Source: Octopus sinensis (lineage: Eukaryota). From it: a stretch of 64,000 bases of DNA. The stretch is taken from NCBI RefSeq assembly GCF_006345805.1, contig NC_042997.1:44144001-44208000 (forward strand), read 5' to 3'. The translations under genes were made by a program, and so were the position numbers. Positions within the stretch are counted from its first letter, which is position 1, and every line of letters starts with the position of its first letter. Below are positions 6,882 to 62,673 of the stretch, in pieces. A model generated the notes under the pieces. The model was given only the letters and a program-made list of their open reading frames with translations. It did not search any database and had not been told where the DNA came from.

Positions 6882-6912
<31 letters not shown>

Positions 6913-9240: not shown

Positions 9241-9998
9241 AATAGAATATATTCCTAAGTTCTTTTTCCACTTTGCTAAAGAAAAATCAGTACTCATAAC
9301 CAGATTGGATCCCTAATTGATGAAAATAGATCATATGAGTGGAGGAGCTGCACTCTGTTGTAACCAAAGTTCAGTATCAAGGACCGGGTATTCTATTGTT
9401 AGGGGCCTAGTGGGGTAATCTATAGCTCCCTTGATACTTTTTGTAGATGCTGGATGCTCTCCATTATGCTACACTCGGTTTCTACATTGCAATTACTAGA
9501 ATCTGTCCTACATTTTATTGCGGCTGTGACATTATTGGTAGATATGCTCTTAGTCTGGTTTAGTGTTCTTACCTTTCACAACCACACAAGAACATTTTGT
9601 CCTGACTTAACTCCAATCTTATATCCTTTGAGATTGTTGTAATTAGGTGTATACTCTTGTTTGCATTTCATGCATATTTTTGACATACAGCTTCCAATCA
9701 TCCACAAAGAAGCCGTGTGTAATGTTCGTATTTCTGTGAATCGATGAGATACTCTTCAGACTTCCTCAACATGAACGACAAGGAGTTTACTGAAAATATG
9801 AAGAGTATCACCGAGAGACGCTCTCATTCTCTGCGAGGCTGTAGTTTATCAGTGATAATACAAACAGTTCTCGTATTTAACTTCAAGATGGTGGCTCAGG
9901 ACGAAGTCAGATGGGCTATGGCTACGATTATGTTCTCTGGAACTTTAATAAGTCAAAAGGCCTCTAGCATCTACGAGTGGAGGACAGAGTCAAAAGCA
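9241..9998. repeat. About 760 bp block, copy 2
   Basis: Near-identical to 5428-6186 with a few indels. Confidence 0.9.
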
Positions 9999-13215: not shown

Positions 13216-13971
13216 ACTAATGTTCCATCACAAAAAGGCACATTCTTGAGTTATCAGTGTAACTGAATTTTCACATTTTCCCAACCTATAGTTAACAAGA
13301 TAGCATATAAGCCAAACGAATTCTTTAATCCTCAGAACTCAACTGCAGAGGCACCTCTAAAAATTAATGATATTATGGAAGATTATATACTTACTGCTAG
13401 TAACCTAGATTCAAACTCAGCATCTGGACCAGATAAGCTCCCAGCCATACTGTAAAAACGTGCAAATACAGACGGATGAACCATCAAAAATACTATTTCA
13501 AAAGTCGCTCGATGCCAGCATATTCCCAGAACTACTGGAAGATACAATAGTAACACCTATACACAAAGGAGAGTAGCAGGGGTGAAGCTAAAAATTACAG
13601 ACTTCTTTGTCTCATATCCCACACATCTAAAATTATCAAACGCACTGTCCGAAAAAAAAACAATTACATATCAATTACAAAAAAATAATTACATATCAAT
13701 TACAAATACATATCAATTACAAAAACAACTTCTTAGATGACACACAACATGGTTTTTGAACTGGACGAAGCTGCCTGTTACAACTATTACAGCATCATAG
13801 CACTATTTTCAGTAATCTCTTGAGAGGAAAAAACACCGACTGTATATGTCTTGATTTTGCTACGCGTTTGACAAGATTGTCCATGGAATTATCTGTGATA
13901 AGCAAAGGGATCTTGGTGTCACAGGAAAGCTCGGAGAATGGCTCTGACGTCCTACACTGTAGGAATTAGTC

Positions 13972-18931: not shown

Positions 18932-19070
18932 TAATATAATAATAATAATAATAATAATAATAGTAATAGCAACAATTACAACAACGTGATTCTCCTTTAA
19001 AGTGACTATTCATACATCTTTCAGCAAACTCAACATTTACATTGTTTATCTAATTCCTTCAAGAATGGAT

Positions 19071-19449
19071 GGAAGCACTCCGTCGGTTACGACGACGAGG
19101 GTTCCGGTTGATCCGATCAAGGGAACAGCCTGCTCGTGAAATTAACGTGTAAGTGGCTGAGCACTCCACAGACACGTGCACCCTTAACGCAGTTCTCGGG
19201 GATATTCAGCGTGACACAGAGAGTGACAAGGCCGGCCCTTTGAAATACAGGTACAACAGAAACAGGAAGTAAGAGTGAGAGAAAGTTGTGGTGAAAAAGT
19301 ACAGCAGGGATCACCACCATCCCTGCCAGAGCATCGTGGAGCTTTAGGTGTTTTCGCTCAATAAACACTCACAACGCCCGGTCTGGGAATCGAAACCGCG
19401 ATCCTACGACCGCGAGTCCGCTGCCCTAACCACTGGGCCATTGCGCCTC
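19071..19449 (-). mobile_element. Young tRNA-derived SINE (about 380 bp family)
   Basis: A box TGGCCCAGTGG and B box GTTTCGATTCC; TSD TCCTTCAAGAA at 19055 and 19453; near-identical to four other copies. Confidence 0.92.
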
Positions 19450-19809
19450 TACTCCTTCAAGAATAAGACATCTATTAGCAAATAAATAAATAAATAAATA
19501 AATAAATAACATACAATTTTTGGGGGGTTTCGTTTCTCAACATTTCGAGTTCAAGTCTTGCCAAGATCGACCGACAATTTCATATTTCCGGTTTGTAGTA
19601 AACTCTGTTACGGTGGTTAGTCTTTTGCTCACATCCTTTTGCATCACATGGATTCACCAATTATGCTTTCTCATAAATATCTATAGAGAGAGATATATTT
19701 TCTGAAACCCCATATCCTGCTTATTTCTATTTTGAGAAACTTCAATTTTAATAGCCTTTCAATTTCCTTCTTGACGATGTTTTGGTGAGAAGGTACCCGA
19801 TGTTTGTGA

Positions 19810-20135
19810 GGGCGCGTGGCTTAGTGGTTAGGGCATTCGGCTCATGATCGTAAGGTTGTGAGTTCGATTCCCGGCGACGTGTTGTGTCCTTGAGCAAGAC
19901 ACTTTATTTCACGTTGCTCCAGTCCACTCAGCTGGCAAAAATGAGTTGTACTTGTATTTCAAAGGGTCAGCCTTGTCACTCTCTGTGTCACGCTGATTAT
20001 CCCCGAGAACTACGTTAAGGGTACACGTGTCTGTGGAATGCTCAGCCATTTGCACGTTAATTTCACGAGCAAGCTGTTCCGTTGATCGGATCAGCTGGGA
20101 CCCTCGTCGTCGTAACCGGCGGAGTCTTTTTTTTT
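19810..20135 (+). mobile_element. tRNA-derived SINE, related subfamily with the same 3' tail
   Basis: A/B boxes; TSD ACCCGATGTTT. Confidence 0.88.
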
Positions 20136-20444
20136 AACCCGATGTTTACAAGAGTGAATAGGTTTCCCTTTTTTGGCTTTATTAGGATAACTTGGCAATT
20201 CGTTTCGATTTCTTAGTCAAAACTGGCTGGGAAACAAGCGCACTGACTAAATAATTTCTTTTTTTTTTCCTATTAAGTGTGTAGGGTGAAGAAGCAGTGG
20301 AAACGTTTTTTGAACATCACCCTGAAAAACTTCATCGTCAACCGAACGAGCGTAGAAACATTTCTTTTCTTTTTTTTTGGATTTGAACTAATTTGAAGCA
20401 TTACTTTTCCATTATTGGATCAACTGATTTGATAGATATTGGAT

Positions 20445-20751
20445 TGGAAGCATTCCGTCGGTTACGACGACAAGGGTTCCGATCAACAGAACAGCCTGCT
20501 CGTGAAATTAACGTGCAAGTGGCTGAGCACTCCACAGACACGTGTACCCATAACGTAGTTCTCATGGAGATTCAGCGTGACACAGAGTGTGACAAGGCTG
20601 GCCCTTTGAAATACAGGTACTACTCATTTTTGCCAGCTGAGTGGACTGGGGCAACGTGAAATAAAGTGTCTTGTTCAAGGACACAACGCATCGCCGGGAA
20701 TCGAACTCACGACCTTACAATCGTCAGTCGAATGTCCTAACCACTAAGTCA
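20445..20751 (-). mobile_element. tRNA-derived SINE flanked by an about 160 bp direct duplication
   Basis: Same family as 19810; flanks 20278-20439 and 20752-20908 are near-identical. Confidence 0.88.
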
Positions 20752-25039: not shown

Positions 25040-26970
25040 TATTGAAAAGGTAATTCGAAACGGTATCAGAACCGACGGGTTTGCAGCAAAAATTACCCTC
25101 GACCATTTTTTCAATGCAAAACACGAAGGCTGCGTTGTCAGAGCTAGAGCTTGTTTGTTCAAACAAGAAGGGACAAAAGTCCTTCGATGGGCTCGAGTGG
25201 TAGAGGCACGACGTAGGAACAAATTCGCAATTCAGTATTCGAGAGATCAGAGGGAGACATAATTCGCGGTTTCAAGGGGATATGTGAGACTTTCCAGCAG
25301 CACTTTGCTTAACTCTTCCGAGTAGGCGATAGTTCACATAGAATTATGGACCTTAGTACTGACAGTGACAGCCTGCAGCAACTCTTGGCAGAAAAGGTCA
25401 ATAACAGCAACTGAAATACAGGAAGTATTGAGATGTTGCACAATGGACAAATCGCCCGGTTTGGTTGGCCTGTCCTTTGAGTTTTATGGCAGAAAGAAAC
25501 GGAAGAATTTCCAGTTTTATGCACCAGTGTGTTTTAACATTTTTTGAAAAAGAATACCACCAAAGAGGATATTATAGATATTTTCTGGTTCATAACTCTT
25601 CTAACTGAAGAGTTTTAAATTTTAGCCAAGGTGTTAGAAAAGTGATTGACACTTGTCTTTGATGGTTTAGTCGAAGAAGCTTAAACATGTTCGATCCCCG
25701 GTAGATCCATCAACCACTACCTCTACCTCGTGCAGTCCATCATACAGGAAATGGGTAACATACCTGGTGTTGGTGGGGGCCCATATCAACTTAAATCAAT
25801 CGAAAGCCTTGATAGCAATCCTAAAAGCAACTGGTTTCGGACCTATTTTCAGTGGCTGGATCGCAGCAATGCATAGTGGTACATATTTGGTGATCAAAGT
25901 AAATAACTACTCGGATTTATTTCATATCGCGCGCGCGATCCGCCAAGATTGTCTTCTTCCGTATAAGTTCTGGAGTTCGAGCCACTGTTGCAGAAACTAA
26001 AACTCTTGAGAGGCATCCTCTGCAAACTACCAGGCAGGAATACGGGAGAGCTGTATTGGCGTATGCGGATGACGTCACTTAAATCTTGTGAGACACTACG
26101 GAAGTTCAGGTAGTTGATTTCATTCTAAAGGAACATGATGTGATGGCAGGAATGAAGATAATTCCGAAGAAGTCAGTGGCCTTGCAACTCGGTACCTAGA
26201 GAGGCAAGTCCATGTCAAAGGACAGCATAGTAAGTCGCTGGATAAACATATATGTGAAATTGCTCGGGGTCTGGTTTGGTCCGAACTTCCAGATGGACAG
26301 GAATTGGGACGAGGTTACAAGCAGGTTGACCAGCATCATTCAAAAATGAGTCGAGAAGATACTATCCCTGACAAGTAGGGCAGAAGTGGTGACTTCCTCA
26401 GTTCTAAGGAACCACCTGACCATTGTGCCTTGCCCCAATCCACGTTTGTCAAAACTGGAACGTTTACCTTTCCGCTCCCCGTGGAAAGGACGCGTTCCAT
26501 TGGTCAGGCAGCCCATCTGTTGCCAGCGCCCTCTAGAAAGTGGGATTGGCAGACACATGCTGAGGCTACGCTACTTACGCCACTTACAGATTTTCTTGGA
26601 CGGTGAAATGGTGAGGCTTCTGTTTGTAAGATACGCCTTTCTGTAGCACATCTCTTTGACGGAATTGCGGCCCTTGGTCGTGAAAAGATCAACACTAGGT
26701 GCTTGGAACGTTGTCAGGCGTCACCGTCCTCTACTAGTCAGGAAATGCGGTCGGTTGACTTTCATGCCGGAAACTACGATGGATAACTTTCAGAAATCCT
26801 TGGTTTGGCAGTGCTACTTAGGAGTACTGCTGGTTCGAAATAAATTCTACGGACTCGGAAGTCCACCGAGTGAGACTGCCCGAAATGGGGCAAAACTATA
26901 CTGCACACAGTCGTGTAGTGTCCTATCATTGCTGGCTTGTGGAGCTATGTTGAGCAGCTGTTGTCACATG
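25040..26970 (+). mobile_element. Decayed Tx1/L1-clade LINE
   Basis: KSPGLVGLSFEFY, AYADDVT, KLLGVWFG, WKGRVPLVRQPICC; homologous to 55000-56680. Confidence 0.8.
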
Positions 26971-26972
26971 TA

Positions 26973-27778
26973 AGACGATCCAAAAAGCTATGATGGATGA
27001 AACCGGCCGCAGACCACCAAACAGTCACCATGACTTTCCTTTGGTGCAACTTTGGCTTCGGGAAGTGCCGTGGGGCTTCGTCGGCGTCCGACCACTGAGC
27101 TGAGTTTCGCCGGTTGTCGTAAAGAATCCACTTTTCATCGCAAGTTTCAATCCGGTCGAGAAACGAGTCGTTGCTGCATAACAGAAGGGCAGACGACACT
27201 TAAAAACGGGCGTTTTTTTTTTTGGGGGGGGGGGTTGTCCTTCAATTCGTGTGGCGCCCATTGCTCAAATATTTTTGTTTTTCTAATATCTTTCAAGTGG
27301 TCGGAAATTGTCGTATACGTTACGTCTAATTCAGAAGCAATATCTCGAACAGCTGTGCATGGATTGGCTTCCACTAAGGCTCTTAGTTGATTGTTGTCAA
27401 CATCCGATGACCGACCACTACGCTTATCATCTTCAAGACTCTCGTCATCTCTACGAATTTTCTTGAACCACCATTGTGCTGTACGTTCATTAATGGTTCC
27501 TGGGCCAAATGCATCATTGATATCGCGAGCTGTTTCAGCAGCTTTTCGGCCTAGCATGAACTGGAATAAGAAAATTGTGCGAATTTGCTTTTTGTCTATG
27601 TTGTATTCAACGTTCCGGAAAAAATGGCCTAATTATTCAAAAAGAAAAAGAGTAACACGATTAGAAAGAGCAAAAAACGGGCTTTAAAATGATTTATAAA
27701 GTCAAAGTAATTTCATGAAAAATAATTTGAAAATACATAATTTAAAACCAAAATTAAAAACTTTCTTGACAACCTAAT
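26973..27778 (-). mobile_element. Mariner transposase pseudogene (Hsmar1/cecropia-like), 3'-truncated
   Basis: [55 protein letters not shown]; TIR TTAGGTTGTCAAGAAAGT near 27778; frameshift at a homopolymer near 27220. Confidence 0.92.
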
Positions 27779-27949: not shown

Positions 27950-30900
27950 TCTCCTTGTCTCACCTTTTTCTCTTTGTCTCTGCCTCTGTCTTTGAGTATA
28001 AGCAGTCTCCGGATGACAACCGGGCCTACGCTGTTCTGCCACAGAGCATCTGCTGGGCGAAAGACCTTCACTGTTGATTCCAGCCTCATTCACACAACTA
28101 CTCTTTATCTGGATCTGTCCTCCTTGGCATCTCTCAACAGCTGACCGTGCATCTTCTTATTTTGAACAGGTGTTTTTCCTCTTCGTTTCTCTCTTAACTT
28201 TGTATTTCATCTTACTCTAACTGCTTTGTAATAAACCCGCCTTTCTTACTTATTCTATTAATGCTTCCTTTGTAATCTTTATATACCAAGCAATATTGTC
28301 GTCCTCTGACTGAATATAGTTCTCACAACTTACCAGTCTCCGACCTCCTTTCCTTCTATTAATGTGTAACCTGTCAACAACACTTTTCAGGTGGAACACA
28401 CCGTGTATTGTCAGTAGTTTCTTCCTTTTCTTCCCCAATGATTTCAGTTCCAACGATCGCCAATCTATCACTCGTACTCCGTATCTCAAGCGAACGAATA
28501 CTCATGTTTTAATTGCTCGGAAGTTTAGTCTTCATAAACAGTTCCATCAGTTCAACTACTTCTAATTTGCTAGGACAAACTTGTATCTTTCCTCGTCTGT
28601 TCTCTTCATTACCTCTCCCTGTTGGCAATTTCACACCACCCACATGGTGAATCAACACACCACACTTTCTCAGCCCAAATTCAATTCGTGATATTCGCGC
28701 TAAATCAACACACTGTCTGATTCAGTTACTTTCTGTTTCTCTCATAAAGCTTGATGTGGTCTGTAAAAGGTAGGAGCTTGATCTTATCTGTCTTTTCCCT
28801 TCAACTCACGCTCAGTTTTCGTGTTTCTCAAAACCAAAGACAACATAATCAAAACGAAATGCAACGGTGACAAGCTGTATCTTTGGAAGATGTGAATTCA
28901 GTGGTCCATCCATTCATGCTTTCTCTGAACAGGTTTAGAATATTATGTGCAATTCTGAATATTTCCCAGCAAACCATTATCTACATTTGAGGAACTATAT
29001 CGTGTGCTTTCCGGTAGTCTATCGATGCCATCCCTAAGTTTGTTTCGCACTTTTTACAGTCTCTCAGCACTGGCTCACTTATCAACAGCTGATCTTTGAT
29101 TCCCCTGCGTCCATGTTTGCATCCTTCTGCTCTTCTGGTAAGATGCTATTCTGATACATGAACTCGTGCCTTGCATCTGCCAGTATTCCGGTTAACGCAT
29201 CATGTTCAGGCTGAATATTGGCCTGAAGTCTTCTTGGTAATTCTTTCTAGCATACATTGTTCTGCCTCTAATCAATCTGCCTAGGATTTTCATGTACTCT
29301 TCAAGTTATAATCGGAGGCGCAATGGCCCAGTGGTTAGGGCAGCGGACTCGCGGTCGTAGGATCGCAGTTTCGATTCCCAGACCGAGCGTTGTGAGTGTT
29401 TATTGAGCGAAAACACCTAAAAGCTCCACGAGGCTCCGGCAGGGGATGGTGGTGATCCCTGCTGTACTCTTTCACCACAACTTTCTCTCACTCTTACTTC
29501 CTGTTTCTGTTGTACCTGTATTTCAAAGGGCCGGCCTTGTCACTCTCTGTGTCACGCTGAATATCCCCGAGAACTACGTTAAGGGTGCACGTGTCTGTGG
29601 AGTGCTCAGCCACTTACACGTTAATTTCACAAGCAGGCTGTTCCGTTGATCGGATCAACCGGAACCCTCGTCGTCGTCGCAACCGACGGAGTGCTTCCAA
29701 GTTATAATCATAATTGTTCCGCATTACTTTCGTGACATTCAGTTAATTTCTTCACCTTATAGCCTTGAGCTCCATCTGGGCCTTCCGCTTTCCAGTTGCT
29801 GCTCTTTCTACTCACACTGAATATCCTCTTCGTTTGTCATAATAGCTTCTTGCAGCGGATTTCTATTGGTTCTTTCATTTCGCGTAGCCACCCTACGTTG
29901 CTGTTGTGTGTTTTACCCTTTTCCCTCATAACCTACTCCAAAATCTTTGACTTTGCTTTGTAATTTGTAGCGCATGTATCTTGGTTTATTTATTTCCTGT
30001 TGAAATCTTTCTATTTTGAAGAATCTGCTTTGCCAGGACTGCTTGATTTTCACGTTGAATGATTTTTGCTCTCTTGGCTTGCTCACTCTATTTTAAGTTT
30101 CTCCATTACTGACGGTAATCCATTGAAATCAGTTTCGTAATTTTGTTTTAACTCTTTCTGCAGTTTTACATTTTTTGCATTTCCAAGGATCCTCCTCTTT
30201 CACCATGGTTCATAGTCCATCTTTCTATTCTGTCCACTCCTTTTGCTTAACAGACACGTCACTTTAAATCCCGTATTTCCTACACCACCGCAACATTTGC
30301 TGACTACATCAGTCTATTAGTTTCGATGATATTGTTTGCGTGTATACACATGCTTTAAGAGCCTGTTTGTTACATCCTTTCTTTTATCTGGTACTGTCTA
30401 GTACTGACAGATAACTCTGCATCCATTTTACATCTCCAAAGATTCTACTCTTCTAACCATGGTTCATTGTCTATCTGTTCTGTCCACTGCCATTGCTTAG
30501 TAAACACATCACTTCAAGTCCTACATTTTCTCCCCCCCCCCATACTTGCTTTCATAAGCCTATGCGTTTTGGTGATATTGTTTGTGTATATACTTTAAGG
30601 ACCTGTTAGATTTTCCTGTTTGCAACATCAGTTTCCATTGGTTCACTTTGTTAATGTCGCATATCAGTCCAAAATGCTCCGACTTCATTATCTTCACGAC
30701 CCCATCTACAATTCTTTTTGCTTCATTTGCGATGGCTGAGCTAGTTACCGTTGATATATCGGGCTGATTGATTTGTACCTCTTCAGCAATTTGAAGAACT
30801 ATAGTAGTCTCACCTATCTCTTCTTTATTAGCAGTGTAATGGTTTTCTGCATTGCCGCCGTCTTCTGACAGTTTCTCTGAATTATTTCGAGTCCTATAAC

Positions 30901-33600: not shown

Positions 33601-33730
33601 GTGGGAAAGTATGTATGCAAGTAGTATATATGTACATGACATTTTTTAAAGGTTCCTTAAGAGTAAAACTTTTGGGCAACTCCGAATTAGAGATTATGCT
33701 TAGCCAAACTAAGCACTCATTGCTGTAGAA

Positions 33731-34114
33731 TGGAAGCACTCCGACGGTTACGACGATGAGGGTTCCGGTTGATCCGAATCAACGGAACTGCCTGCTCGTG
33801 AAATTAACGTGTAAGTGGCTGAGCACTCCACAGACACGTGTACCCTTAACGTAGTTCTCGGGGATATTCAGCGTGACACAGAGAGTGACAAGGCCGGCCC
33901 TTTGAAATACAGGTACAACAGAAACAGGAAGTAAGAGTGAGAGAAAGTTTGGGTGAAAGAGTACAGCAGGGATCACCACCATCCCCTGCCGGAGCCTCGT
34001 GGAGCTTTAGGTGTTTTCGCTCAATAAACACTCACAACGCCCGGTCTGAGAATCGAAACCGCGATCCTATGACCGCGAGTCCGCTGCCCTAACCACTGGG
34101 CCATTGCGCCTCCA
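33731..34114 (-). mobile_element. Young tRNA-derived SINE (about 380 bp family)
   Basis: TSD CTGTAGAAT. Confidence 0.92.
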
Positions 34115-34757
34115 CTGTAGAATATAACATAGCCATATAGCTGCGTTATTTGGTAGTAAATCGTTCTCTCAAGGAACTACCTTAATTGTTCAAAAACGCT
34201 TCCATCCAGGAAATAACCTACGTCTGTGGGAAAACTTTCATTTTTGTACTGTTACTGAATCCAATTATAAATTCGTAAATCGTTTTTACAACTAATGACA
34301 GTCTACTCCCCACCTCTCTCTCTCTCTCACACACACACACACTTTCTTTCTTTCTTTTTTCTTTCCTTTTTCTCTCGCATTGTCCTCAATACGAACTGCT
34401 GTCTGAACGAATGAACGCTACAAGGAACTCTAAACCGCAAAACCACAGAGCTACTGGAAAATTAACACTCTTGAATAAACGATAACAACACCAGTAGTGT
34501 AAATGAGAAAGGAACCAGCTCTTTTCAGTTTTCACTAAAAAACTCATTAAGGACTGCTCAGCTCTCCTTTCAGCTGTCGAAGAAATACATAGAAATGTTC
34601 AAAAGCAAAAAAAAAAAAAAAAGAAAAAAGAAAAAGGAGAAAACCAAATAAGTTACAATAAAACAAAATAAATAAGTAAAATGCATTGATTACCACGAAT
34701 TAATAACTTCCGAGTCATTTGTTATATTTTGTTTACATTGCTACAAGAATCTATATA

Positions 34758-39953: not shown

Positions 39954-40409
39954 GGCAATCTTTCGTCTCTAGTAGACCTTTCCGTCGATTTCCGTAATTT
40001 TTTTTTTTTTTACATATGGGCTTGCGGAAACTTTTGAAGTAATATACATACATATACACATACACCAAGTAAAAAATTTCAGTTATCTCTTTCTTTCACA
40101 CATTACTCTGTCTCTTCACACACACTAACAGAAGCACTTCACTTACACAACATACTGTCTGTCTCCCACACCCCATCAAACACACACACACACACACGCA
40201 CATACACACACACACACGCACATACACACACATGTACATCAATGCTTCCCCTGGACGGTAACTTCAAAAGAACTTCCCTAGTCATACAATCGCTTTCTCT
40301 TAGTCTCTTTCGCTCTCATTACTTCAAAAGTTCCCGCAAGCCCATATGTAAAAAAAAAAAAATTTTTACGGAAATCGACGGAAAGGTCTACTAGAGACGA
40401 AAGATCGCC
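39954..40409. mobile_element. MITE with about 90 bp TIRs and 8-bp TSD (Merlin-like)
   Basis: TIR GGC(A/G)ATCTTTCGTCTCTAGTAGACCTTTCCGTCG; TSD GAGATTTT at 39946-39953 and 40410-40417. Confidence 0.9.
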
Positions 40410-40858: not shown

Positions 40859-41233
40859 ACACACACACACACACAATATTTATATTATACATGCGTTATA
40901 CATACAAATGCACATATAAATATAAATATATTTAGATTGGAAATTTGAATGACAGTTGTTTTTTTATTCATAAAGAATGTAAAGCATTTTACTGATAGAA
41001 TTTATTTATAGATTTGTAACTTTTTCATCTTGCAGAATGTTAAGAAACTTTTCCATATCTGTCTTTCTGTTGAGAACATTCTTGATTAAGAATGATATAT
41101 ATATATATTATATTAAATTGAGACAAAACCACTATTAGGCAAATCAAACAATGAAAAACTTAAGCCAATACATATGATTAATTTATATTATTTAAATATA
41201 TAACAAAATTATTAAAAAATATAATTAATATCA

Positions 41234-41297
41234 CACTACGATCATTTCATGCCTGCTAACATCTTCAAATTTTTGAGTTGCAGTCATTCATCAGGTG
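41234..41297 (-). ncRNA. Type I hammerhead ribozyme (stem III C-to-U variant)
   Basis: Minus strand CAC-CUGAUGA-AUGACUGC..GCAGGCAU-GAAA-UGAUCG-UA-GUG. Confidence 0.75.
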
Positions 41298-41329
41298 GTT
41301 TAAATATTTTTCTTTGCGAGGTTTTAAAC

Positions 41330-41393
41330 CACCTGATGAATGACTGCGACTCAAAAATTTGAAGATGTTAGCAGGCATGAAACGATCGTAGTG
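41330..41393 (+). ncRNA. Type I minimal hammerhead ribozyme
   Basis: Stem I CAC/GUG, CUGAUGA 41333-41339, stem II AUGACUGC/GCAGGCAU, GAAA 41379-41382, palindromic stem III CGAUCG, cleavage triplet GUA ending at 41390. Confidence 0.88.
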
Positions 41394-41516
41394 TGATATT
41401 AATTATATTTTTATAATAATTTTGTTTATATTTAAATAATATAAATTAATCATATGTATTGGCTTAAGTTTTTCATTGTTTGATTTGCCTAATAGTGGTT
41501 TTGTCTCAAATTTTTA

Positions 41517-41580
<64 letters not shown>

Positions 41581-41586
<6 letters not shown>

Positions 41587-42945
41587 ATGTTACATTACTC
41601 GGTAGTCAAGATAAACTCTGAGTTTCAGATGCCGAACGGTTGTCAATTTCTTAGACGTTTCCTTAGATCTTAATAATAATATTTATAAGCCTTATAGGAA
41701 GCCCAATGATAGACTAAGTTATATTAATGTAGGTTCATGCCATCCCCCTATAGTATTCAAAAATTTAGTTAAAAATATTAGTAAGAGGATTTCTAGCCTC
41801 TCATCTAATGAGGACATCTTCAATAGCGTTGCCCCAGTTTATAATAAAGCTTTAAAAGATAGTGGTTTTAGCGAAAAAATAAAATATACACCTATCACCA
41901 GCCCAACAATAAGGAAAAGGAATAATAGAAATAGGAAGGTCATCTGGTTTACGCCCCCTTACTCACCCGAGGTGGCCTTCAATATAGGTAAATATTTCCT
42001 AGCACTGAAGATAAGACATTTTCCAGTTAACCATGCTTATAGGAAACTCTTCAATAGACACAATTTAAAAATTAGTTTTAGTTCAACTACCAATTTTAAA
42101 AACATAATCAATCATAACATACAAAAAACACAAGAAGAAAACAGCTGTTCATGCAGGAATAAAAATTGTGCCCGCTAAATGGAGCTTGCATGTCCAAGAC
42201 CATCATATATGAAGCTACCGTAAACTCTATAACCACTAAAGACACCCGTTTCGACGAAGAATACGTGGGCCTGACAGAGGGTAATTTCAAGGCCAAGTTC
42301 ACTTTGAGCTTTAGGCACTGGAACAAAAGAAAAGCGACACAATTATCCAATCATATTTGGTCTTTAAGAGATAAAGGTGTCGATTATAACATACAATGGA
42401 AGATTTTGGCCAGATGTAAGCCCTATACTAACGGCAGCGGAAGGTGCGGTTTATGCGACATGGAGAGATGGCTTATCTGGAAAAGCAGCTTAGACCCTAC
42501 CACATGTCTAAATACAAGGACAGAGCTTTTCGGATCATGCCCACATGTGACTAAATTTCTGTTACGTTTTTGGTCCCCTAAAGAAAACGGATAGAACATG
42601 CTTTCTGTGTTATGTCCCAAGAAGATTTTATATATTTTTATATATTTTTATATATTTTTATGTATTTTTATATAATTTTTATGACGAAAAATGCGAGCGA
42701 TGTATAAGTACGCAGGCAAAGCAGAGTTATAACAGAGTAATTTCCCTTCATTTTTAACGGTATTTTTCATAACGTTTTCAAATAGCCAGATAACCGATGA
42801 GATGGTGTTGTGGATTTCCACTTCGGCATCTGAAACTCAGAGTTTTATCTGACTACCGAGTAATGTAACATATTGTATAGATAAATTTCCTCTATTTACA
42901 TAATATTGAGGTCTCTTTCTTTCTTTGTTATCTTACCGTTTTAAT

Positions 42946-42948
<3 letters not shown>
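41581..42948 (+). mobile_element. 5'-truncated Penelope-like element: RT thumb plus GIY-YIG endonuclease, with inverted pseudo-LTR fragment
   Basis: NFLDV..YRKPND..SCHPP, IWFTPPYS, CSC..CPLNGAC, IIYEA..YVGLTE, CGLC..E, LNTRTEL..CPH; 41581-41636 is the inverted copy of 42822-42878. Confidence 0.92.
42788..42850 (+). ncRNA. Hammerhead ribozyme in the Penelope pseudo-LTR (core variant CCGAUGA)
   Basis: AGAUAA-CCGAUGA-GAUG..CAUC-U-GAAA-CUCAGAG-UU-UUAUCU. Confidence 0.75.
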
Positions 42949-42986
<38 letters not shown>

Positions 42987-43265
42987 ATGTAGAAAAATAC
43001 AACTCGGACAAGAACGTAAAGCATTTAGAAGACGATACAAAAACACGGACGGGACATTCGAAGCTTCAATCTTAAGTCAAGAACCGGATCATCCTAGCAA
43101 TTTCGGTGATTAATCTTGAGATCGCTCCAATCCGGCCAGCCAAGGAAAAACTAAGCTACGAGCATTAGATTTCTTGGAAGAAGGATCGAATGTATACGAA
43201 AAAGGGACAGAAAAACGGACGGTGCCACACGAATATAAAATACAAAAACAATAATGGTAAAAACA

Positions 43266-43344
<79 letters not shown>

Positions 43345-43495
43345 CATACATACCTACATATATATGTATATATGTACGTATGTATGTATGTATGTATGTA
43401 TGTATGTATGTATGTATGTATGTATGTATGTATGTATGTATGTATGTATGTATGGCATGGTATGTATGTATGTATGTATGTATGTATTATGTATA

Positions 43496-43870
43496 TATAA
43501 GGCAAATAAGAAAATAGAGAGGATATAAAATTGACTAACATCAGTCAGTAAACAATCCATTATACCTATTTATTAAATGATAACAAACATGTGTTTAAGT
43601 GGTACAAGTAAACGAATGAGATCAGCCAATAAATACATAAACAGATATATATATATATATATAGAGAGAGAGATGAATGAATAATAATAGATGAGTGTAC
43701 GGATACAAATCACTTACGGCCGTTTCTACCATGAAGCCTCAGAATCTTCCAATCTTACTTGAACCACTTTAATACATGTTTGTTATCATTTAATAAATAG
43801 ATATAATGGAATGTTTACTGGCTGATGTTAGTCGATTTTATATCCTCTCCATTTTCTTATTTGCCTTATA
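43496..43870. mobile_element. Fold-back element with about 115 bp arms and a partial hammerhead in the loop
   Basis: 43496-43611 is the inverse of 43755-43870; minus strand GAAA-CGGCCG-UA-AGUG at 43711-43726. Confidence 0.8.
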
Positions 43871-44034
43871 AATTGTGGGTAAATTTCGAATTTACCCCCA
43901 CCCATCCCTAGTATTCAATTGCACTATTGTCATGCAATAATAAGCACTTGGTTAGAAATACGTATGTGTACATCCAGTAGTATACTGGATATTTAATATC
44001 CCTTAGATGGTTTATTAACATCTAATATATATTC

Positions 44035-44070
<36 letters not shown>

Positions 44071-44072
<2 letters not shown>

Positions 44073-44350
44073 AAATATAATATGTGACAATTATTCGGTA
44101 ACCATGATAAAACTCCGAGTTTCGGATGTCGGGGCGGAAACCCACGCCGGCATCTCTTCAGTTATCGGGCTATCAAAAAATGCTATGAAAATGACCGTTA
44201 AACAAAGGGAAATTACTGTGTTGCATAGTAAAACTCGGAGTTTTATCATGGTTACTGAATAATTGTCACATATTATATTTACAGATAAATTCCTCTATTA
44301 ACATAATATCGAGGTCTCTTTCATTCTTTTGTTGTCTTACCATTTCTATC
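44071..44350. mobile_element. ORF-less fold-back relative of the Penelope pseudo-LTR
   Basis: About 52 bp inverted arms (44071-44122, 44230-44282); tail 44283-44350 is homologous to 42880-42948. Confidence 0.85.
44106..44166 (-). ncRNA. Type I hammerhead ribozyme
   Basis: Minus strand GAUAA-CUGAAGA-GAUGCCGG..CCGACAUC-C-GAAA-CUCGGAG-UU-UUAUC. Confidence 0.82.
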
Positions 44351-44907
44351 AATGTATGTGTGTGTGTGTATGTGTGTATATAAAGAGAGAAATTGAAGTA
44401 TTATTGGCAGAAGCAAAAGCACCATATGTATGTATGTTTGCGTGTTTGTATGCATACATGCATGTACTTATGTATGTATGTATGCATGCATGCATGTATG
44501 TATGTATGTATGTATGTGTATTTGTGTGTGTGCGCAACTGTATGAGTGTGTATAGGTTTATGTTTACAACCAAACAACAGATTGCTCAATACATGGTGTA
44601 CAGTTTACACATTATAAGTTGTATCATAGGTTACAGATAGGATCATATGTTTTTTCCTTTATTTTATTACTTGCCCTTGAAACTTATGATATAACGAAAA
44701 TAATTTGTTAACATAGGAAACAAATCCGGGGAAAAATTGTTGAAATTTTTCTGGTTTGATATTTTGTAAATTTCAATTTCAATATTCTGAAGTTTTCCTA
44801 TTCAAATAAGAACCCTCGTTGAACCGAACTAATAAAAGGAAAGATTTTCTGTTTTATCCAATTGTCTAAGTTAACCGACAGGAGGGCTTATTACTGTATA
44901 CGTACAA

Positions 44908-45502
44908 AGGGCGGCAAGCTGGCAAAATCGTTAGCACGCCGGGCAAAATGCATAGCGGTATTTCGTCTGCCGTTACGTTCTGAGTTCAAATTCCGCCGAG
45001 GTCGACTTTGCCTTTCATCCTTTCGGGGTCGATTAAATAAGTACCAGTTACGCACTGGGGTCGATCTAATCGACTGGCCCCCTCCCCCAAAATTTCGGGC
45101 CTTGTACCAAGAGTAGAAAAGAATTATTAGCACGCCGGGTGAAATACTTAGCAGTATTTCGTCTGTCTTTACGTTCTGAGTTCAAAGTACGCCGAGGTTG
45201 ACTTTGCCTTTCATCCTATCGGGGCCGAAAGTACAAGTGAAACACTGGGGTCGATCTAATCGACTGGCCCCCTCCCCCAAAATTTCGGGCCTTGTACCAA
45301 GAGTAGAAAAGAATGGTTAGCACGCCGGGTGAAATACTTAGCAGTATTTCGTCTATCTTTACGTTCTGAGTTCAAAGTCCGCCGAGGTTGACTTTGCCTT
45401 TCATCCTATCGGGGCCGAAAGTACAAGTGAAACACTGGGGTCGATATAATCGACTGGGCCCCTCCCAAAAAATGCTTTGTGCCTTCAGTAGAAAGGATTA
45501 TT
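44908..45502 (+). mobile_element. Three MetaSINE-type copies head-to-tail (about 190 bp period)
   Basis: Units start near 44908, 45126 and 45316; units 2 and 3 share diagnostic changes. Confidence 0.9.
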
Positions 45503-45599
45503 GTACACGTACACTATATTGGCAATATAGAAACAATGACGCTATATCAATGTCTCTATATCAATGATGATACAGAGACAATAACACTGCTTGAGTTTG

Positions 45600-46870
45600 A
45601 TATGCAAAATACATATAAGCAGTCCTTTAGGTTGGTGGCAGTCTATGCTCCAAAAGAGGATAGTCAAGCAGTCTTTTTTCGGGACTTGGAGAATTTCCTA
45701 GTGACGTCGAAAACTTCACTTTTAACAGGAGACTTCAACACTATTCTCAACGTGCGGGTGAATAGTGTAGGCTCGAATTACAGAAGAGGAAGCGGATCTT
45801 TTCCTTTTGAACGGCAGACAATTTCTAGTTAACTAAACACTTTAAAACTTCGTATACTGGTAGAATGTGTCAAAATAAAACATTTTTTTCTCTTGGCTTT
45901 CTTGAGAAAATTGTAATTTGTTTGTTTAACGTAGTTTAATTTTTCGAATTTTAACTAATCCTATGCTCTCTTTTGAGCTAAAATCCTTTGCTGCGTCTAA
46001 AACTGAGACAACATCCTGTAACTAACCCTAAACCTCCCTTAAAGATTTTGGCCAAGGTGCTGGCAAAAAGGTTGACGGTTGTCGCGGAGAAAATTGTCGG
46101 GAAGGCGCAAACATGTGCCATCCCTGGCAGGTCGATCCAGGACAATCTTCATCTCTTACGCTACACCTTAGACAGGGTAGGTAAAGTTTCCGGTGAAGAT
46201 GGGGCACTGGTCCATTTAGACCAGAGTAAAGCCTTCGATAGGGTTGACCAACCTCCCTGGAGGCATTTAAACCCGGTTTGATTAAAAGACTAAACACGAC
46301 TGAATGGCAAAGGGAATGTCGGCAGGCACTTGCACTAATCGACGCGGCGGGTAAGGAAGGCCAGCATCGGAAATACCACGTCTGCATTTTACAAAGGGTT
46401 GGTAGAGTTTAAAAGTGACGACGTTCTAGGAGAAACTCTGGGACTCGATAGGGACCAGCTATCCAACCTGTTTCGGAACACTTTCGGGGTAGGGTATTTG
46501 GACAATTACCAAAGATCCCTGACCTGGCAGTGTTTCAGGAACGCGTTACCTGTTTACGAGAAATTGTCCAGGCACGGGATTTCAGTGCCACCCGAATGTC
46601 CAAGATGCGGCCAGGATAAGGTTCCTTGTTTTCTATGTACAGTCGCAGTCATGAAAGAGTGTGCATGGAGAACTAGAATGCAAGGTTTGACGTCAGGGAA
46701 CTTCATCTCCGGCTCTGGAATGCTATATTACTTCAGGTACCACCTGAAAAGCAAGATAGGGCTGGAGAGAAGACACCTGTCGAAAATAGCGTATGAGGAA
46801 AGATGGAAGGATGTGGTAAGGAAGTTGGGAGTGTATGTCCCTACTTAACCCATTCAGGATAAAATAAAGG
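45600..46870 (+). mobile_element. Fragmented Tx1/L1-clade LINE
   Basis: LVAVYAP..LTGDFN (endonuclease), KILAKVLAKRL..GRSIQDNLHL..DQSKAFDRVD (RT), CPRCG knuckle. Confidence 0.85.
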
Positions 46871-47262
46871 TGTAGCCGTTGGAACTTTAAAAATAAAGTA
46901 ATAAGTCAGAACTAAAGTAATATCAAAAAAAAAAAACAAAACATATGTCATTTTAATATATTTTTGTAAAAAATAACTCACTAAATAACCCTTCTAAATG
47001 TTTGTAGTGCCCTGTGTTGTCCCATCTGTGTCTGATTGTATAATCGTAATAAAGAGAATTGCTGGGTTCGGCTATTCTGCATTGATAAGGGGCAAATACA
47101 CTGAAACTAGTCTGCAGATGCTTGACCAGCAAGGGGAAGCGTCTGACCTCCCCTGTTCGAAGGTTATAATGGACACAGGTTCGTGTGATGGCCTCTTGGA
47201 GCTAATCAACGGCAGCATTCGTCCTATATTTCCGGACTGCCATATTAGCTTGGGGATAACTA

Positions 47263-47510
<248 letters not shown>

Positions 47511-47596
47511 TAACAATAAAAGAATAGGACCTCGATATTAGGTAAATAGAGAACATTTATATGTGTATGATTTAGAACAAGCAGTAAGTTGTCATA

Positions 47597-47655
47597 ATAG
47601 CCGATGAGAATACATCATAGCTCTTAGCTCTGGCATTCGAAACTCTGAGTACTAT
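47597..47655 (+). ncRNA. Hammerhead ribozyme (core variant CCGAUGA) closed by an about 40 bp extended stem I
   Basis: AUAG-CCGAUGA-GAAU..AUUC-GAAA-CUCUGAG-UA-CUAU; 47561-47600 pairs with 47652-47692. Confidence 0.78.
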
Positions 47656-47696
47656 CATGACAACTTACTGATTGTCCTAAACTATACATACATATG

Positions 47697-47737
<41 letters not shown>

Positions 47738-47805
47738 GGTAAGATGAGAAAATAGAGAGGTAATTAATAAATTATTATTTATTAATTAAAAAATTAACAA
47801 ATACG

Positions 47806-47888
47806 CCTTATAGCTGTTTCAATTCCAGAGCTTCGGGAAATCAAGTAATAAAATTTAAAATTATTTTAAAGTCGAATCTCTTCAGAGG
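47806..47888 (-). ncRNA. Degenerate type I hammerhead
   Basis: Minus strand CCU-CUGAAGA-GAUUC..GAAUU-GAAA-CAGCUA-UA-AGG; one mismatch in stem III. Confidence 0.6.
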
Positions 47889-47997
47889 TATTTTAAGATA
47901 TACAAAATAGGTGTTCAATTCCTACATGTTGAGTAAACGGCTACAAATCGTTAACGGTTGCAGCCGTTCTATATATATATTATATATGCTCTCTCTC

Positions 47998-48029
<32 letters not shown>

Positions 48030-48039
<10 letters not shown>

Positions 48040-48235
48040 TAAATTAGAGATAAAACCACTATTAGGCAAATCATACAATGAAAAACTTAAGCCAATACAT
48101 AAGATTAATTAATTTATATTATTTAAATATATATCAAAATTATTAAAAAAGATAATTAATATAACACTACGATCGTTTCATGGCTGTTCAATTCTTAAAA
48201 TTTTCGAGTTACAGTCATTCTTCAGGTGGTTTACA
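48030..48235 (-). mobile_element. Single-arm copy of the 41100 element with an intact hammerhead at 48165-48228
   Basis: Homologous to 41105-41302; minus strand CAC-CUGAAGA-AUGACUGU..ACAGCCAU-GAAA-CGAUCG-UA-GUG; starts at (TA)n. Confidence 0.85.
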
Positions 48236-48380
48236 TATCTAAAATATAATCAATATTTTTAAGATATAAATAATATATATAATATAATAATTTTACTTAT
48301 AATAAACTCTATTATCAAATATGATTATATCCAAATCGACTATAATTTCCCTGTAAGTTTGGATTTATTCCCTAATATTT

Positions 48381-48450
<70 letters not shown>

Positions 48451-48551
48451 TTACTTGGAAATGGATGCGTGGCGTTGAATCAAATAATAATAATATAAAT
48501 AATGTATATATATATATATATGCATACACACACATACGCACACGCACACAC

Positions 48552-48627
<76 letters not shown>

Positions 48628-49253
48628 GCATATACGGGTACAGGACGTCACAAACAGTAAACGACATCAAATACGAAAACAAATGTGTGGAATACGCAAA
48701 CAACGAGAGAAAAAATGGGAAACAAGACGGGTAACAAAAAAACGACCCTTCATCAGTTGTCGCCTGCCCATCTACTCCTTATTTCGAGCGTTAAACGACA
48801 ATATGAGCCTTCGAAGGCAGTTGCTCCCACAAAAGCCAAAATAAAATTTGGGATTTCTGGAGGGTTAAAGTTGGGAGAAAAGAGGATAGTGGAGACATAC
48901 AAGGAAACCGAACGAAAACAAACATGGAGGGTTGTTCGAACAGAACGTGGGACAAATAGGGAACAGTGAGAGAAATATTTTCTTTGAAAAGTGAAAAGAT
49001 AGAAGAGTGAGTCTGGAGATGTCCAGTCCTTAGAACGTCCGAGCAAGAAAGAAAGCTGGTCATGTAAAGGTCAAAGTTACGAACAAAAACAGGACAGTGG
49101 AGACACACAAGGAAACCGACCGGAAACAAACATGGAGGGTTGTTAGACCAGAACGAGGGTAAAATAGCGGAGACTGGAGAAATATGAGTATTCAATGTCT
49201 AAGAGGATGGTCCAAATTACGTGTAGCCTTGAGTAGTACGTTGTTGGTATGGG

Positions 49254-49624
49254 TGGAAGCACTCCATCGGTTACGACGACGAGGGTTCCGGTTGATCCGA
49301 ATCAACGGAACAGCCTGCTCGTGAAATTAACGTGTAAGTGGCTGAGCACTCCACAGACACGTGTACCCTTAACGTAGTTCTCGGGGATATTCAGCGTGAC
49401 ACAGAGAGTGACAAGGCCGGCCCTTTGAAATACAGGTACAACAGAAACAGGAAGTAAGAGTGAGAGAAAGTTGTGGTGAAAGAGTACAGCAGGGATCACC
49501 ACCATCCCCTGCCGGAGCCTCGTGGAGCTTTAGGTGTTTTCGCTCAATAAACACTCTGGGAATCGAAACCGCGATCCTATGACCGCGAGTCCGCTGCCCT
49601 AACCACTGGGCCATTGCGCCTCCA
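49254..49624 (-). mobile_element. Young tRNA-derived SINE (about 380 bp family)
   Basis: TSD TTGTTGGTAT. Confidence 0.92.
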
Positions 49625-49810
49625 CCTTGTTGGTATACTCTAGAGTAGTCGACAAGTCATAAATCCGTTGGTTTATTGTAATCGAGGCCAGCTATGAATG
49701 GGAGAATGAACAACAGCTAACATAGTTGCTCATTCTCCCATTCATAGTTGGCCTTGACAGACATATCTCAGCTGTATTCCTGGATATTCTTTTGTTTTGT
49801 AAAATTACTT

Positions 49811-50983: not shown

Positions 50984-51005
50984 GTGTTTGTGTGTATGTG
51001 TGTGT

Positions 51006-51388
51006 GGAGGCGTAATGGCCCAGTGGTTAGGGCAGCGGACTCGCGGTCATAGGATCGCGGTTTCGATTCCCAGACCGGGCGTTGTGAGTGTCTATTGAGC
51101 GAAAACACCTAAAGCTCCACGAGGCTCCGGCAGGGGATGGTGGTGATCCCTGCTGTACTCTTTCACCACAACTTTCTCTCACTCTTACTTCCTGTTTCTG
51201 TTGTACCTGTATTTCAAGGGGCCGGCCTTGTCACTCTCTGTGTCACGCTGAATATCCCCGAGAACTACGCTAAGGGTACACGTGTCTGTGGAGTGCTCAG
51301 CCACTTACACGTTAATTTCACGAGCAGGCTGTTCCGTTGATTCGGATCAACCGGAACCCTCATCGTCGTAACCGACGGAGTGCTTCCA
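51006..51388 (+). mobile_element. Young tRNA-derived SINE (about 380 bp family)
   Basis: TSD TATGTGTGTGT. Confidence 0.92.
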
Positions 51389-51997
51389 TATGTGTGTGTG
51401 AAATCTTTTTAGTTTTTCTTTAACGCCCACTCCTCCATAAATCATGAGATTTCGGCTTTTTTACCATTAAAAAATCAAATCATTGTTAACACTATACGGA
51501 CAGTCCGATTCTGCAATTTGTTTCTGTTTATGATTTCAAAATAATTTTCAGGCGAAAAAGTTTGTGATTTAAGGGAGATTTAGCTGTTACTTCTAGCACA
51601 TCCCACCGCCACCTGCTACCTTACTCGCTTCTTTGTCACTCTGACATTATTGATGTTTTTCAATATTTTCTCCCAATAAAAGCATTTTCTGGAATGATGA
51701 TGCCGTGGAATGATGATGCTGGTATGTAAGCAGCAGCAACAAAAATTATAAATTAGATTTTTAATCCCCCATCCCGCATCAAACAAGTCCGTGTGTGTGT
51801 TTAAGAAAAAAAACATATTTACTAACAGAAAATACTGGTAGAATAAATTATCATTTACATGCCTTTTTTAAATCACTTGGTCGCCTTAACGAAGTCCCTT
51901 ACACACATGCATACAAACACAGACAAACGCAAACACACACATTGCATGAGCGGTATACCTTTATAGAGGGTGAGAGTGAGAGAGATAGAGAGAGAGT

Positions 51998-60445: not shown

Positions 60446-60495
60446 TAAAAAGAAGAAAAGAAAATGGAGATAAAGAAGTTAATAATTATTTAATT

Positions 60496-60810
60496 ATTAT
60501 CAAATTTGTCATCTTCACTTCTTACAGCCCTTTCAGTTAATACTCAATAACTTAATTACAAATTTGTACCTTAAATTTGCCTTTATGTGACATTAGCATA
60601 ATTCCATCAGAGAAAAGAAAAAGAGATGTGTCTTGGGATGTTATATGTGGACCTGTCCATTTAATTCAGCAGAATCTGAAATGAATTGATTGGTCCCTGA
60701 GGAAATTATGCGCATGTCACATAAATGCAAATTTAATGTACAAATTTGTAATTAAATACGTGAGTATCAACAGAAACGGCCGTAAGATGCGAAGCTGACC
60801 AATTTGGTAA
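60496..60810. mobile_element. Older fold-back element (about 115 bp arms) with degenerate hammerheads, intronic
   Basis: 60496-60610 is the inverse of 60697-60810; plus CUGAGGA..GAAA-CGGCCG-UA-AGA; minus UCU-CUGAUGG..GAAA-GGGCUG-UA-AGA. Confidence 0.75.
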
Positions 60811-61059
60811 TCTTTATATATAAAAGTGAGGAGGTTGTGTGAGTGTCTGTCTCCTACGATTTAGATTCCTAACTACTCCCACATTTTGCGGTGCAGTTTA
60901 ACCAAAACCGGGTATCTTATAGTCGTGATTCATATCGAGCCCTTCTGGGTATTAGCGCGCGTCTACGATGAGTCTACGATTTAAAAAAAATTTACCATCA
61001 TTTTTTTCCATTTTAATGCATTTTTTTCGCTATTATATAAGGGAAGTAACTCTCTAAAA
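60811..61059 (+). mobile_element. 3'-truncated non-autonomous Helitron
   Basis: Near-identical to 53239-53485. Confidence 0.85.
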
Positions 61060-61708: not shown

Positions 61709-62137
61709 GGATCTTTTTGGTTTGAACGGCAGTTTTTTCTAGCGGTGTCATACGAAATTGTTACCCATAATTATGACCCTAGAATCGATCTATTGCATTT
61801 CAATCTCTTTTAGGGTTAGGGTTAGTTAGGGTTAGGGTTAGGGGTGGGGAAGGGTATCTTTTTTTTTCTTCACAAATGTAAATAACCAATCTGTTTCTTA
61901 AACGAGGGACATGTTTATACGCACAGAACTTTTTTAACTCATAGACGTCCCTGATTGGTTGAAATTGCCAGAAATTGAAGAAAAAAACAACAAATATCTT
62001 ACAAACTATAGAATTTTCTCAATAAAGCCAAGAGAAAAAGATGTTTTATAAACACATTCTACCAGTATACGAAGTTTGAAATTCTTTTAGTTACCTAGAA
62101 ATTATGTTAAAAACTGCCGTTCAAACCGAAAAGATCC
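61709..62137. mobile_element. MITE with about 27 bp TIRs, 8-bp TSD and internal TTAGGG repeats (Merlin-like)
   Basis: TIR GGATCTTTT.GGTTTGAACGGCAGTTTT; TSD GTATTTAC at 61701-61708 and 62138-62145. Confidence 0.9.
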
Positions 62138-62286
62138 GTATTTACGATAATATACATACACGTACACACACACATACACGCACACACACACATGCTTGCG
62201 CGCAACCATATTTATGCACATAGTAATATGTGTATGTAAAATTATCTGAAGAGTCTTTAAACATTTTCTTTGTTTTACATTTACAG

Positions 62287-62673
62287 CTGATGTTTATCAT
62301 ATTGCAAGCTGCCGTTATGCTGGACGCGAAATGCGTCCCGCTACACAAAGAGCTGACTCTTGGCGCCTCCATTAGATCCACGTGTCCCAACGCTAGCAGC
62401 GAAGAGTTGTGCCCATCAAAAACGGTTATTAACAACGATACTGAGCATCGGCTGCCAATGATATTGCTTGAACGTCGTTGCTGTACGAAATTGTGTTTGA
62501 GCGGGAAACCCCACGTTTGCAAAGAGCAGTACATGGAGATCATTGTCATGAAACGACCGACTGTGAACGACCCCTACGTCAAGAAGAGCATGAACATTTC
62601 GGTTGGCTGTGTCTGCATGCGTAAGCGGGAGAAGATTGATTTGCCCGAACCGACAATGGAGGAAGAGCGATAA
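62287..62673 (+). CDS. Exon 2 of a secreted IL-17-like cystine-knot cytokine (138 aa spliced)
   Basis: Polypyrimidine tract plus TTACAG acceptor; CP..N.D..R.P..L.E..C..C..C..Y..I.V.K..Y..ISVGCVC matches the invertebrate IL-17 pattern; intact frame. Confidence 0.85.
   Translation: MMFIILQAAVMLDAKCVPLHKELTLGASIRSTCPNASSEELCPSKTVINNDTEHRLPMILLERRCCTKLCLSGKPHVCKEQYMEIIVMKRPTVNDPYVKKSMNISVGCVCMRKREKIDLPEPTMEEER

Follow-up and report, generated by a model that had tools for sequence, protein, structure and literature searches.

The locus

The window analysed here, a stretch of 64,000 nucleotides of Octopus sinensis DNA (NC_042997.1, positions 44,144,001 to 44,208,000), contains a palindrome made of two inverted arms of 199 nt each, with a hammerhead motif on each strand (Table 1). 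Ungapped complementarity between the arms is 92%, and in a gapped alignment of one arm against the other 202 of 209 columns are identical. The differences are restricted to two substitutions (41279/41348 and 41244/41383) and three indel events of 1, 1 and 3 nt. The initial annotation, made from the letters alone, had described a near-perfect palindrome with few differences between its arms, which these numbers bear out; the spacer, given there as 20 nt, measures 18 nt (41305–41322). RNA folding, which had been proposed as a check, predicts a very stable hairpin for the palindrome (−293.9 kcal/mol, z −41.8), and none of 100 shuffled sequences reached equal stability. The palindrome is a real structure.

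Both ends of the palindrome are bordered by (TA)n, as is the 3′ end of a solo copy of the same repeat family (48021–48238), a trait that is not exclusive to the Hydra clade of Penelope-like retroelements (PLEs). The palindrome copy has no direct pseudo-LTR (pLTR) and no ORF is left in it, and a target-site duplication is unreadable inside the (TA)n microsatellite.

Table 1. Palindrome, hammerhead motifs and related elements in the window, with the basis of each row
Feature	Position	Strand	Basis
Left (TA)n, putative remnant of the target tract	41095..41108	.	Sequence
Left arm, putative element 3′ end (part of the pLTR), sense on the minus strand; longer, probably primary copy, which includes the spacer	41106..41304	-	Arm alignment; contig pieces 14, 15 and 19 and a loose end behind 41324 run through the spacer
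GTTTAAA, inner microhomology partner at the junction	41298..41304	+	Sequence
18-nt spacer, predicted hairpin loop; family sequence upstream of the left-arm hammerhead	41305..41322	-	Two X9 contigs aligned to 41324; X3 piece 19 spans 41219–41324
TTTAAAC, outer microhomology partner; putative 5′ truncation point	41323..41329	+	Sequence, contigs
Right arm, shorter inverted copy of this 3′ end	41323..41521	+	Arm alignment
Right (AT)n, putative target tract, common to the palindrome and the next element	41517..41582	.	Repeat scan
Minimal type I hammerhead motif of the left arm: 3-bp helix I, CUGAUGA core, long helix II, GUA site; palindromic helix III altered by a C-to-U change at a CpG	41234..41297	-	Descriptor, folding
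Minimal type I hammerhead motif of the right arm: palindromic helix III of 8 nt intact; cleavage predicted after 41390	41330..41393	+	Descriptor, folding
Solo copy of the palindrome family, 89.9% identical, same 3′ end in (TA)n; hammerhead 48165–48228 with a CUGAAGA core	48021..48238	-	Window self-comparison, descriptor
5′-truncated, Hydra-clade-like PLE of another family: inverted arm 41572–41636, frameshifted RT-thumb/linker/GIY-YIG ORF 41615–42594, hammerhead 42787–42851, 3′ tail at one end only (42887–42947)	41572..42947	+	Self-comparison, protein homology, descriptor
Putative head-to-head PLE stub related to the preceding element (79%), hammerhead 44106–44166, tail on the short arm (44284–44345)	44070..44345	-	Self-comparison, descriptor
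Putative head-to-head stub, arms of 43 nt, hammerhead 47597–47655 in the spacer	47558..47694	+	Descriptor, self-comparison

Hammerhead motifs

Each strand carries one hammerhead motif with its CUGAUGA core pointing outward, as initially annotated, at 41330–41393 (plus) and 41234–41297 (minus). Both arms contain the parts that define a minimal type I hammerhead, namely CUGANGA and GAAA cores, a UH site, helices I and II and a palindromic helix III; here they comprise a 39-nt helix II region, GAAA, an 8-nt palindromic helix III and a GUA site. In the left arm, helix III contains a U-G wobble, and the CpG-type change there weakens the self-duplex energy from −10.0 to −6.4 kcal/mol. The motif lies about 125 nt from the 3′ end in both arms and in the solo copy, which sits 7 kb from the palindrome.

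Rfam returned 0 matches at gathering score over the whole window, and none of the 62 matches obtained at E ≤ 10 in 41000–48500 belonged to a hammerhead family. Rfam matches of a miRNA-like kind were rejected as generic hairpin hits, with scores under their own cut-offs. An initial hammerhead descriptor demanded four perfect pairs in helix II and was escaped by both arms; its single match, at 13261–13339, is probably due to chance. A second, relaxed descriptor, written after the motif had been seen, found six cores in the 64 kb, all within 41.2–48.3 kb. In 100 shuffled sequences it found 0.02 cores on average and never more than 1, a contrast that is somewhat inflated because the descriptor was tuned on the seen motif. 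Folding of single motifs was no better than that of shuffles (z −0.2 to −0.6), as is expected for dimer-type motifs, and the computed active monomer fold of the arm hammerheads amounts to only −1.5 and +1.3 kcal/mol.

Neighbouring elements and other features of the window

The combination by which PLEs are recognized, a single ORF with a telomerase-like RT and a GIY-YIG domain, was found only in the next element (41572–42947), which belongs to a family other than that of the palindrome. Its ORF aligns with residues 387–710 of a 713-aa relative (E 8e-65). Among its best 150 relatives, 16 are 650–800 aa long, and these carry DKT (13/16), an N-terminal RWK-like motif (11/16), CxCX5C (9/16) and CxxC with CxH (16/16); the marks given for the Hydra clade are RWK and DKT, a CxCX5C linker and an EN that lacks CCHH and has CxxC and CxH (PMC8557442). 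Pfam gave no match for the two ORF pieces of this neighbour, and for its full-length relatives weak RVT_1 or GIY-YIG matches, under the cut-off, in two of six. A homologue search with the endonuclease piece against longer proteins yielded 67 candidates, none of them at E ≤ 0.001.

Further units with inverted arms occur at 43493–43873, 60487–60820, 39954–40409 and 19817–20751 (arms of 119, 127, about 90 and about 300 nt, respectively); none matches the hammerhead descriptor, and they are possibly older PLE stubs. Other repeats are frequent in the window. A non-LTR-type RT ORF (RVT_1, zf-RVT; 128–2430) lies between 195-nt inverted repeats that are 97% alike (128–318 and 2236–2430), a (CATA)n array of 5.6 kb at 6184–11783 is unusually long, mariner-type transposase fragments (HTH_48, Transposase_1) occupy 26948–27632 on the minus strand, and a short interstitial TTAGGG run is present at 61810–61843. 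A repeat of about 386 nt has five copies (19065–19453, 29314–29699, 33730–34116, 49249–49625 and 51004–51389), and since these are 94–98% alike the family is taken to be young. An abundant SINE-like repeat of about 190 nt, which presumably resembles an octopus SINE, is found as a 2.8-copy tandem at 44907–45502 and at about ten other sites. An open frame with an IL17 domain (62227–62670, plus strand; Pfam PF06083, E 1.6e-05, just above the cut-off) is located 21 kb from the palindrome. When 148 of the 307 non-repetitive ORFs were scanned with Pfam, a scan that short exons would escape, the clear matches were transposon domains and IL17.

The repeat family in sequencing contigs

Logan contigs of four of 24 runs (X1, X2, X3 and X9) were compared with 40885–41516 at 88% likeness; runs with a small share were left out. 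Summed contig depth over the element 3′ end (41127–41148) is 2.1e6 in X1, 1.8e6 in X2 and 6.1e5 in X3, against 42, 33 and 6.7, respectively, in the unique flank and about 6e4, 4e4 and 6e3 near the centre (41325–41346). The depth profile fits a high-copy, 5′-truncated retroelement with a 3′ bias, summed depth being no copy number.

Joints within the contigs point to further copies of similar build. Of 15 joints, 13 skip into the right arm on the same strand; 12 of these begin in the left arm, between −43 and +25 relative to the mirror position, and one begins at the spacer end. Two joints were found in two runs each, one with the identical 8 letters between its sides. The sides are short (21–30 nt at 88% likeness) and several are AT-rich, which makes chance possible. 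Judged by sequence, the 13 same-strand joints are other head-to-head copies of the family, although some rows may be unreliable. Several joints other than the palindrome's own form tight hairpins in which hardly any loop is left.

At 41175 and 41375 and at their mirrors, the two arms agree with each other where most of the family depth carries another base, and we infer from these shared minority bases that both arms derive from one template. Each arm appears to have gained one substitution since the duplication. Likeness between the arms is 97%; in the largest class of family contigs it is 90–95%. A conserved extension or loose end before 41104, present in 11, 7 and 4 contigs of X1, X2 and X3 and missing from the palindrome copy, looks like an optional PLE tail or a continuation from the pLTR into the body. 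Beside the solo copy, a stretch of about 100 nt (48270–48383, plus strand) shows, by eye, a loose likeness to the 3′ extension of the family and may be an inverted end with a tail.

X1 piece 2 passes from unique flank into the element end with 0 differences, and no contig crosses the palindrome's own centre among the pieces listed (32 of 6,469). A metagenome scan yielded 11 loci, all of them chance 19-mer matches confined to the pattern and a few bases, and linked no ORF to the family. At 41072, X1 contains two alleles, with depths of 24.8 and 30.8, and a contig of depth 30.8 departs from the window at 41095; the alignment of X3 piece 17 ends at 41108. The palindrome insertion may differ between haplotypes.

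The centre junction

Two X9 contigs run along the left arm and the entire spacer up to 41324 and go on with different letters, starting AAAC. Because they continue through the spacer, we read it as family sequence that lies upstream of the left arm. Relative to these two contigs, the window has one extra T at the junction. The upstream sequence of the family includes a short palindrome; its end, TTTAAAC, is the complement of GTTTAAA, which lies 18 nt back. X3 piece 19 halts at the same centre position and resumes at the hammerhead AAAC (41380), which would be a second use of a microhomology unless the piece is an orthologous allele with a 55-nt deletion; with 8 differences in 106 nt, as opposed to 3 in 166 nt of flank, it is more likely to be another copy than an allele. 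A weaker hint comes from the stub at 44070–44345, the junction of which lies on a 5-nt match that is found upstream in the related neighbour. The position of the junction on the TTTAAA microhomology favours a snap-back, or the annealing of two cDNA ends.

Transcription, pairing and editing

According to the initial annotation, RNA transcribed from either side would hold one ribozyme and its full antisense copy, and geometrically this is correct. Whichever side transcription comes from, the antisense arm precedes the ribozyme in the read-through RNA, and about 98% of the hammerhead nucleotides are predicted to pair with that arm. The accompanying claim, that the hairpin competes with ribozyme folding, is a weak one: the monomer fold is itself weak, each RNA contains only one sense copy, and a single minimal hammerhead (min-HHR) showed no in vitro cleavage (PMC4209133), so that the hairpin has little to switch off. 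The same inactivity is stated for the minimal hammerhead class in a review (PMC6765202), and the Anolis PLE hammerhead motif is reported to require protein (PMC11167929).

Read-through would yield an RNA hairpin of about 200 bp, on which ADAR or small-RNA silencing could act as on other palindromic repeats. Repeats of this kind are established targets of ADAR, and in lizard Penelope undergoes heavy editing (PMC5625713); by analogy, ADAR editing of the locus is plausible if it is transcribed. In X9, an RNA-like run whose kind is guessed, contigs give no cover over the unique flank 40885–41082, and a piece at 41094–41154 runs into other sequence, a pattern as compatible with a transcribed as with a silent locus. 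By eye, 41020–41089 on the plus strand contains an acceptor-like site (a pyrimidine run with AG at 41034–41035) and a 17-codon frame that ends with TAA before the palindrome; if this were a last exon, the hairpin would fall in the 3′ UTR.

Origin of the palindrome

We consider it highly probable that the palindrome is the stub of a PLE insertion, that is, the 5′-truncated last 200 nt or so of the element placed head to head with its own inverted copy in a (TA)n tract. This reading is based on the solo copy, the depth profile, the joints, the spacer with its microhomology, the shared alleles, the possible tail, the similarly built neighbour and literature precedent. Counting against it are that no ORF was linked to the family, that no listed contig crosses the centre, that joint sides are short and partly AT-rich, that the upstream sequence comes from two contigs, which lack the extra T, that Rfam misses the hammerheads and that a target-site duplication is unreadable. 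Assignment to the Hydra clade is likely. The two hammerheads are best read as one pLTR ribozyme that was duplicated and is a passenger in this stub.

As PLE biology would suggest, a GIY-YIG endonuclease would have nicked the (TA)n tract, and the reverse transcriptase would have copied the RNA from its 3′ end and halted after about 225 nt, just past the hammerhead. We lean, by a little, towards the cDNA 3′ end having then folded back at TTTAAAC/GTTTAAA and extended on itself, and the second, inverted copy would end in the other half of the (TA)n tract. In an active element, tandem transcripts would be processed by this ribozyme, acting as a dimer or aided by protein. What the sequences themselves show is a repeat family that has a hammerhead motif at its 3′ end, inserts into (TA)n, is truncated to varying extents at its 5′ end and has repeatedly been duplicated head to head at short microhomologies. 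It is possible, though less likely than not, that this abundant family leaves head-to-head stubs with microhomology junctions and a preferred cDNA stop at the small palindrome just upstream of the ribozyme.

The inverted copy could also have formed if a dimeric PLE protein primed both target strands with two RNAs, and the truncated cDNAs annealed at TTTAAA and were filled in. In vitro, a PLE protein of Anolis both cleaves the two strands and extends them, and it has been modelled as a dimer (PMC11167929), the microhomology fits such annealing equally well, and tails on a single arm (42887–42947; 44284–44345) fit two separate priming events. However, the arms share minority alleles and, at 97%, exceed the 90–95% likeness of the largest contig class, so that both RNAs would have to come from one source copy, and the tight hairpins with almost no loop at several other joints also speak against it; we regard this route as possible but doubtful. 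A fold-back artefact of the assembly is very improbable. Inverted repeats of such a kind are described as troublesome for assemblies (PMC8557442) and the centre is not crossed by a listed contig, but the arms differ at five places with a private change in each, the outer flanks are not mirrored, the spacer genuinely belongs to the family, X1 piece 2 connects unique flank and element end, and similar junctions occur in contigs of X1, X2 and X3, many of them near single-copy depth.

The hairpin shape and the TA context would suit a non-autonomous DNA transposon (MITE) with long terminal inverted repeats (TIRs). Such an element should have fixed TIRs and a uniform size, and is largely refuted by junction positions that vary among copies and by the solo single-arm copy; the arms moreover carry a PLE-type hammerhead, and we attach next to no probability to this origin. 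The palindrome might also be a selected regulatory RNA, in which the hairpin keeps the ribozyme off until ADAR editing opens it, or feeds Dicer. The great stability of the hairpin, the predicted occlusion of the hammerheads on both strands, the hyper-editing of palindromic repeats elsewhere (PMC5625713) and the acceptor-like site with its short frame ending at 41089, just upstream, could be taken in its favour. Yet at least three further cases of the layout lie within 7 kb and many more elsewhere, helix III of the left arm has been weakened by its CpG-type change, and the 148 ORFs scanned yielded no host gene domain near the site. Furthermore, all nine variant rows of the RNA-like X9 also occur in DNA-like runs, contigs being a poor record of editing, and monomers of the min-HHR type were inactive in vitro (PMC4209133). 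Selection for such a role is thus very unlikely in our judgement.

Comparison with known systems

Inverted 5′-truncated copies, tails and (TA)n or microsatellite targets are standard among PLEs (PMC8557442). The supplement of the same paper contains Penelope-13_HM, whose two strands each carry a hammerhead, as well as Hydra hammerheads with the layout seen here, and a Hydra family, Hydra-1_Obim, is listed for O. bimaculoides; PLEs are reported to have been active recently in Octopus vulgaris (PMC13282606). The palindrome, read as a PLE stub, resembles the Hydra-clade PLEs described there in its (TA)n target, in a hammerhead roughly 100–200 nt from the 3′ end and in an inverted 5′-truncated copy that leads to a hammerhead on each strand (PMC8557442). 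It also shares with such elements, of which Penelope-13_HM and Hydra-1_Obim are examples, the order of core, extra base, helix II, U-GAA and palindromic helix III. Its helix II with loop, 39 nt, is longer than in the Hydra motifs listed, its motif differs from the listed row of Hydra-1_Obim when the two are compared by eye, and its truncation is so deep that the ORF is gone.

Minimal hammerheads on opposite strands, 100–700 bp apart, were reported in 2014 (PMC4209133), and the palindrome is similar to the min-HHR described there in its short helix I and long helix II, in the base left unpaired after the core, in its palindromic helix III and in its opposite-strand pair. In contrast to that class, its helix II opens with U-A instead of G10.1-C11.1 (most listed Hydra motifs also have U-A), it has an A-G mismatch, and helix I is only 3 bp. 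Self-priming was proposed for inverted pLTRs in 2013 (PMC3846280), and Penelope of Adineta vaga, as presented in that study, likewise has a head-to-head inverted pLTR shorter than the direct one, a junction palindrome and an optional tail; units there usually flank an ORF and have readable TSDs, whereas the palindrome is a pLTR end only. Non-LTR retrozymes (10.64898/2026.07.22.740005) are also small, non-coding, derived from PLE pLTRs and equipped with a type I hammerhead, but the ones described are head-to-tail tandems with same-strand hammerheads, while the palindrome is head to head, and a retrozyme-type tandem of its unit is absent from the window. Palindromic Harbinger repeats of Xenopus are similar in being self-folding repeats of about 200 bp with a short loop (PMC5625713); they originate from a DNA transposon and their editing has been demonstrated, whereas editing of the palindrome is a prediction. 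Among the titles and abstract openings listed in the literature searches, none describes the palindrome family, which repeat libraries or the PMC8557442 supplement may already include.

Significance

The palindrome is best read as an ordinary by-product of insertion, of a known kind, and not as a purpose-built RNA switch. The single locus is of little weight, since at least four inverted PLE stubs with hammerheads, this one included, lie within 7 kb. It nevertheless serves as a warning that, in animal genomes, a pair of opposed hammerheads is usually the scar of a PLE insertion, and that Rfam models miss such pairs. The formation of inverted ends in PLEs was named as unresolved by a 2021 paper on these elements (PMC8557442). 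If the family does leave stubs with microhomology junctions and a preferred cDNA stop, a census of junctions across the family would be a direct genomic test between snap-back and both-strand priming, and such stubs might supply the host with a sizeable amount of tight-loop dsRNA for hyper-editing.
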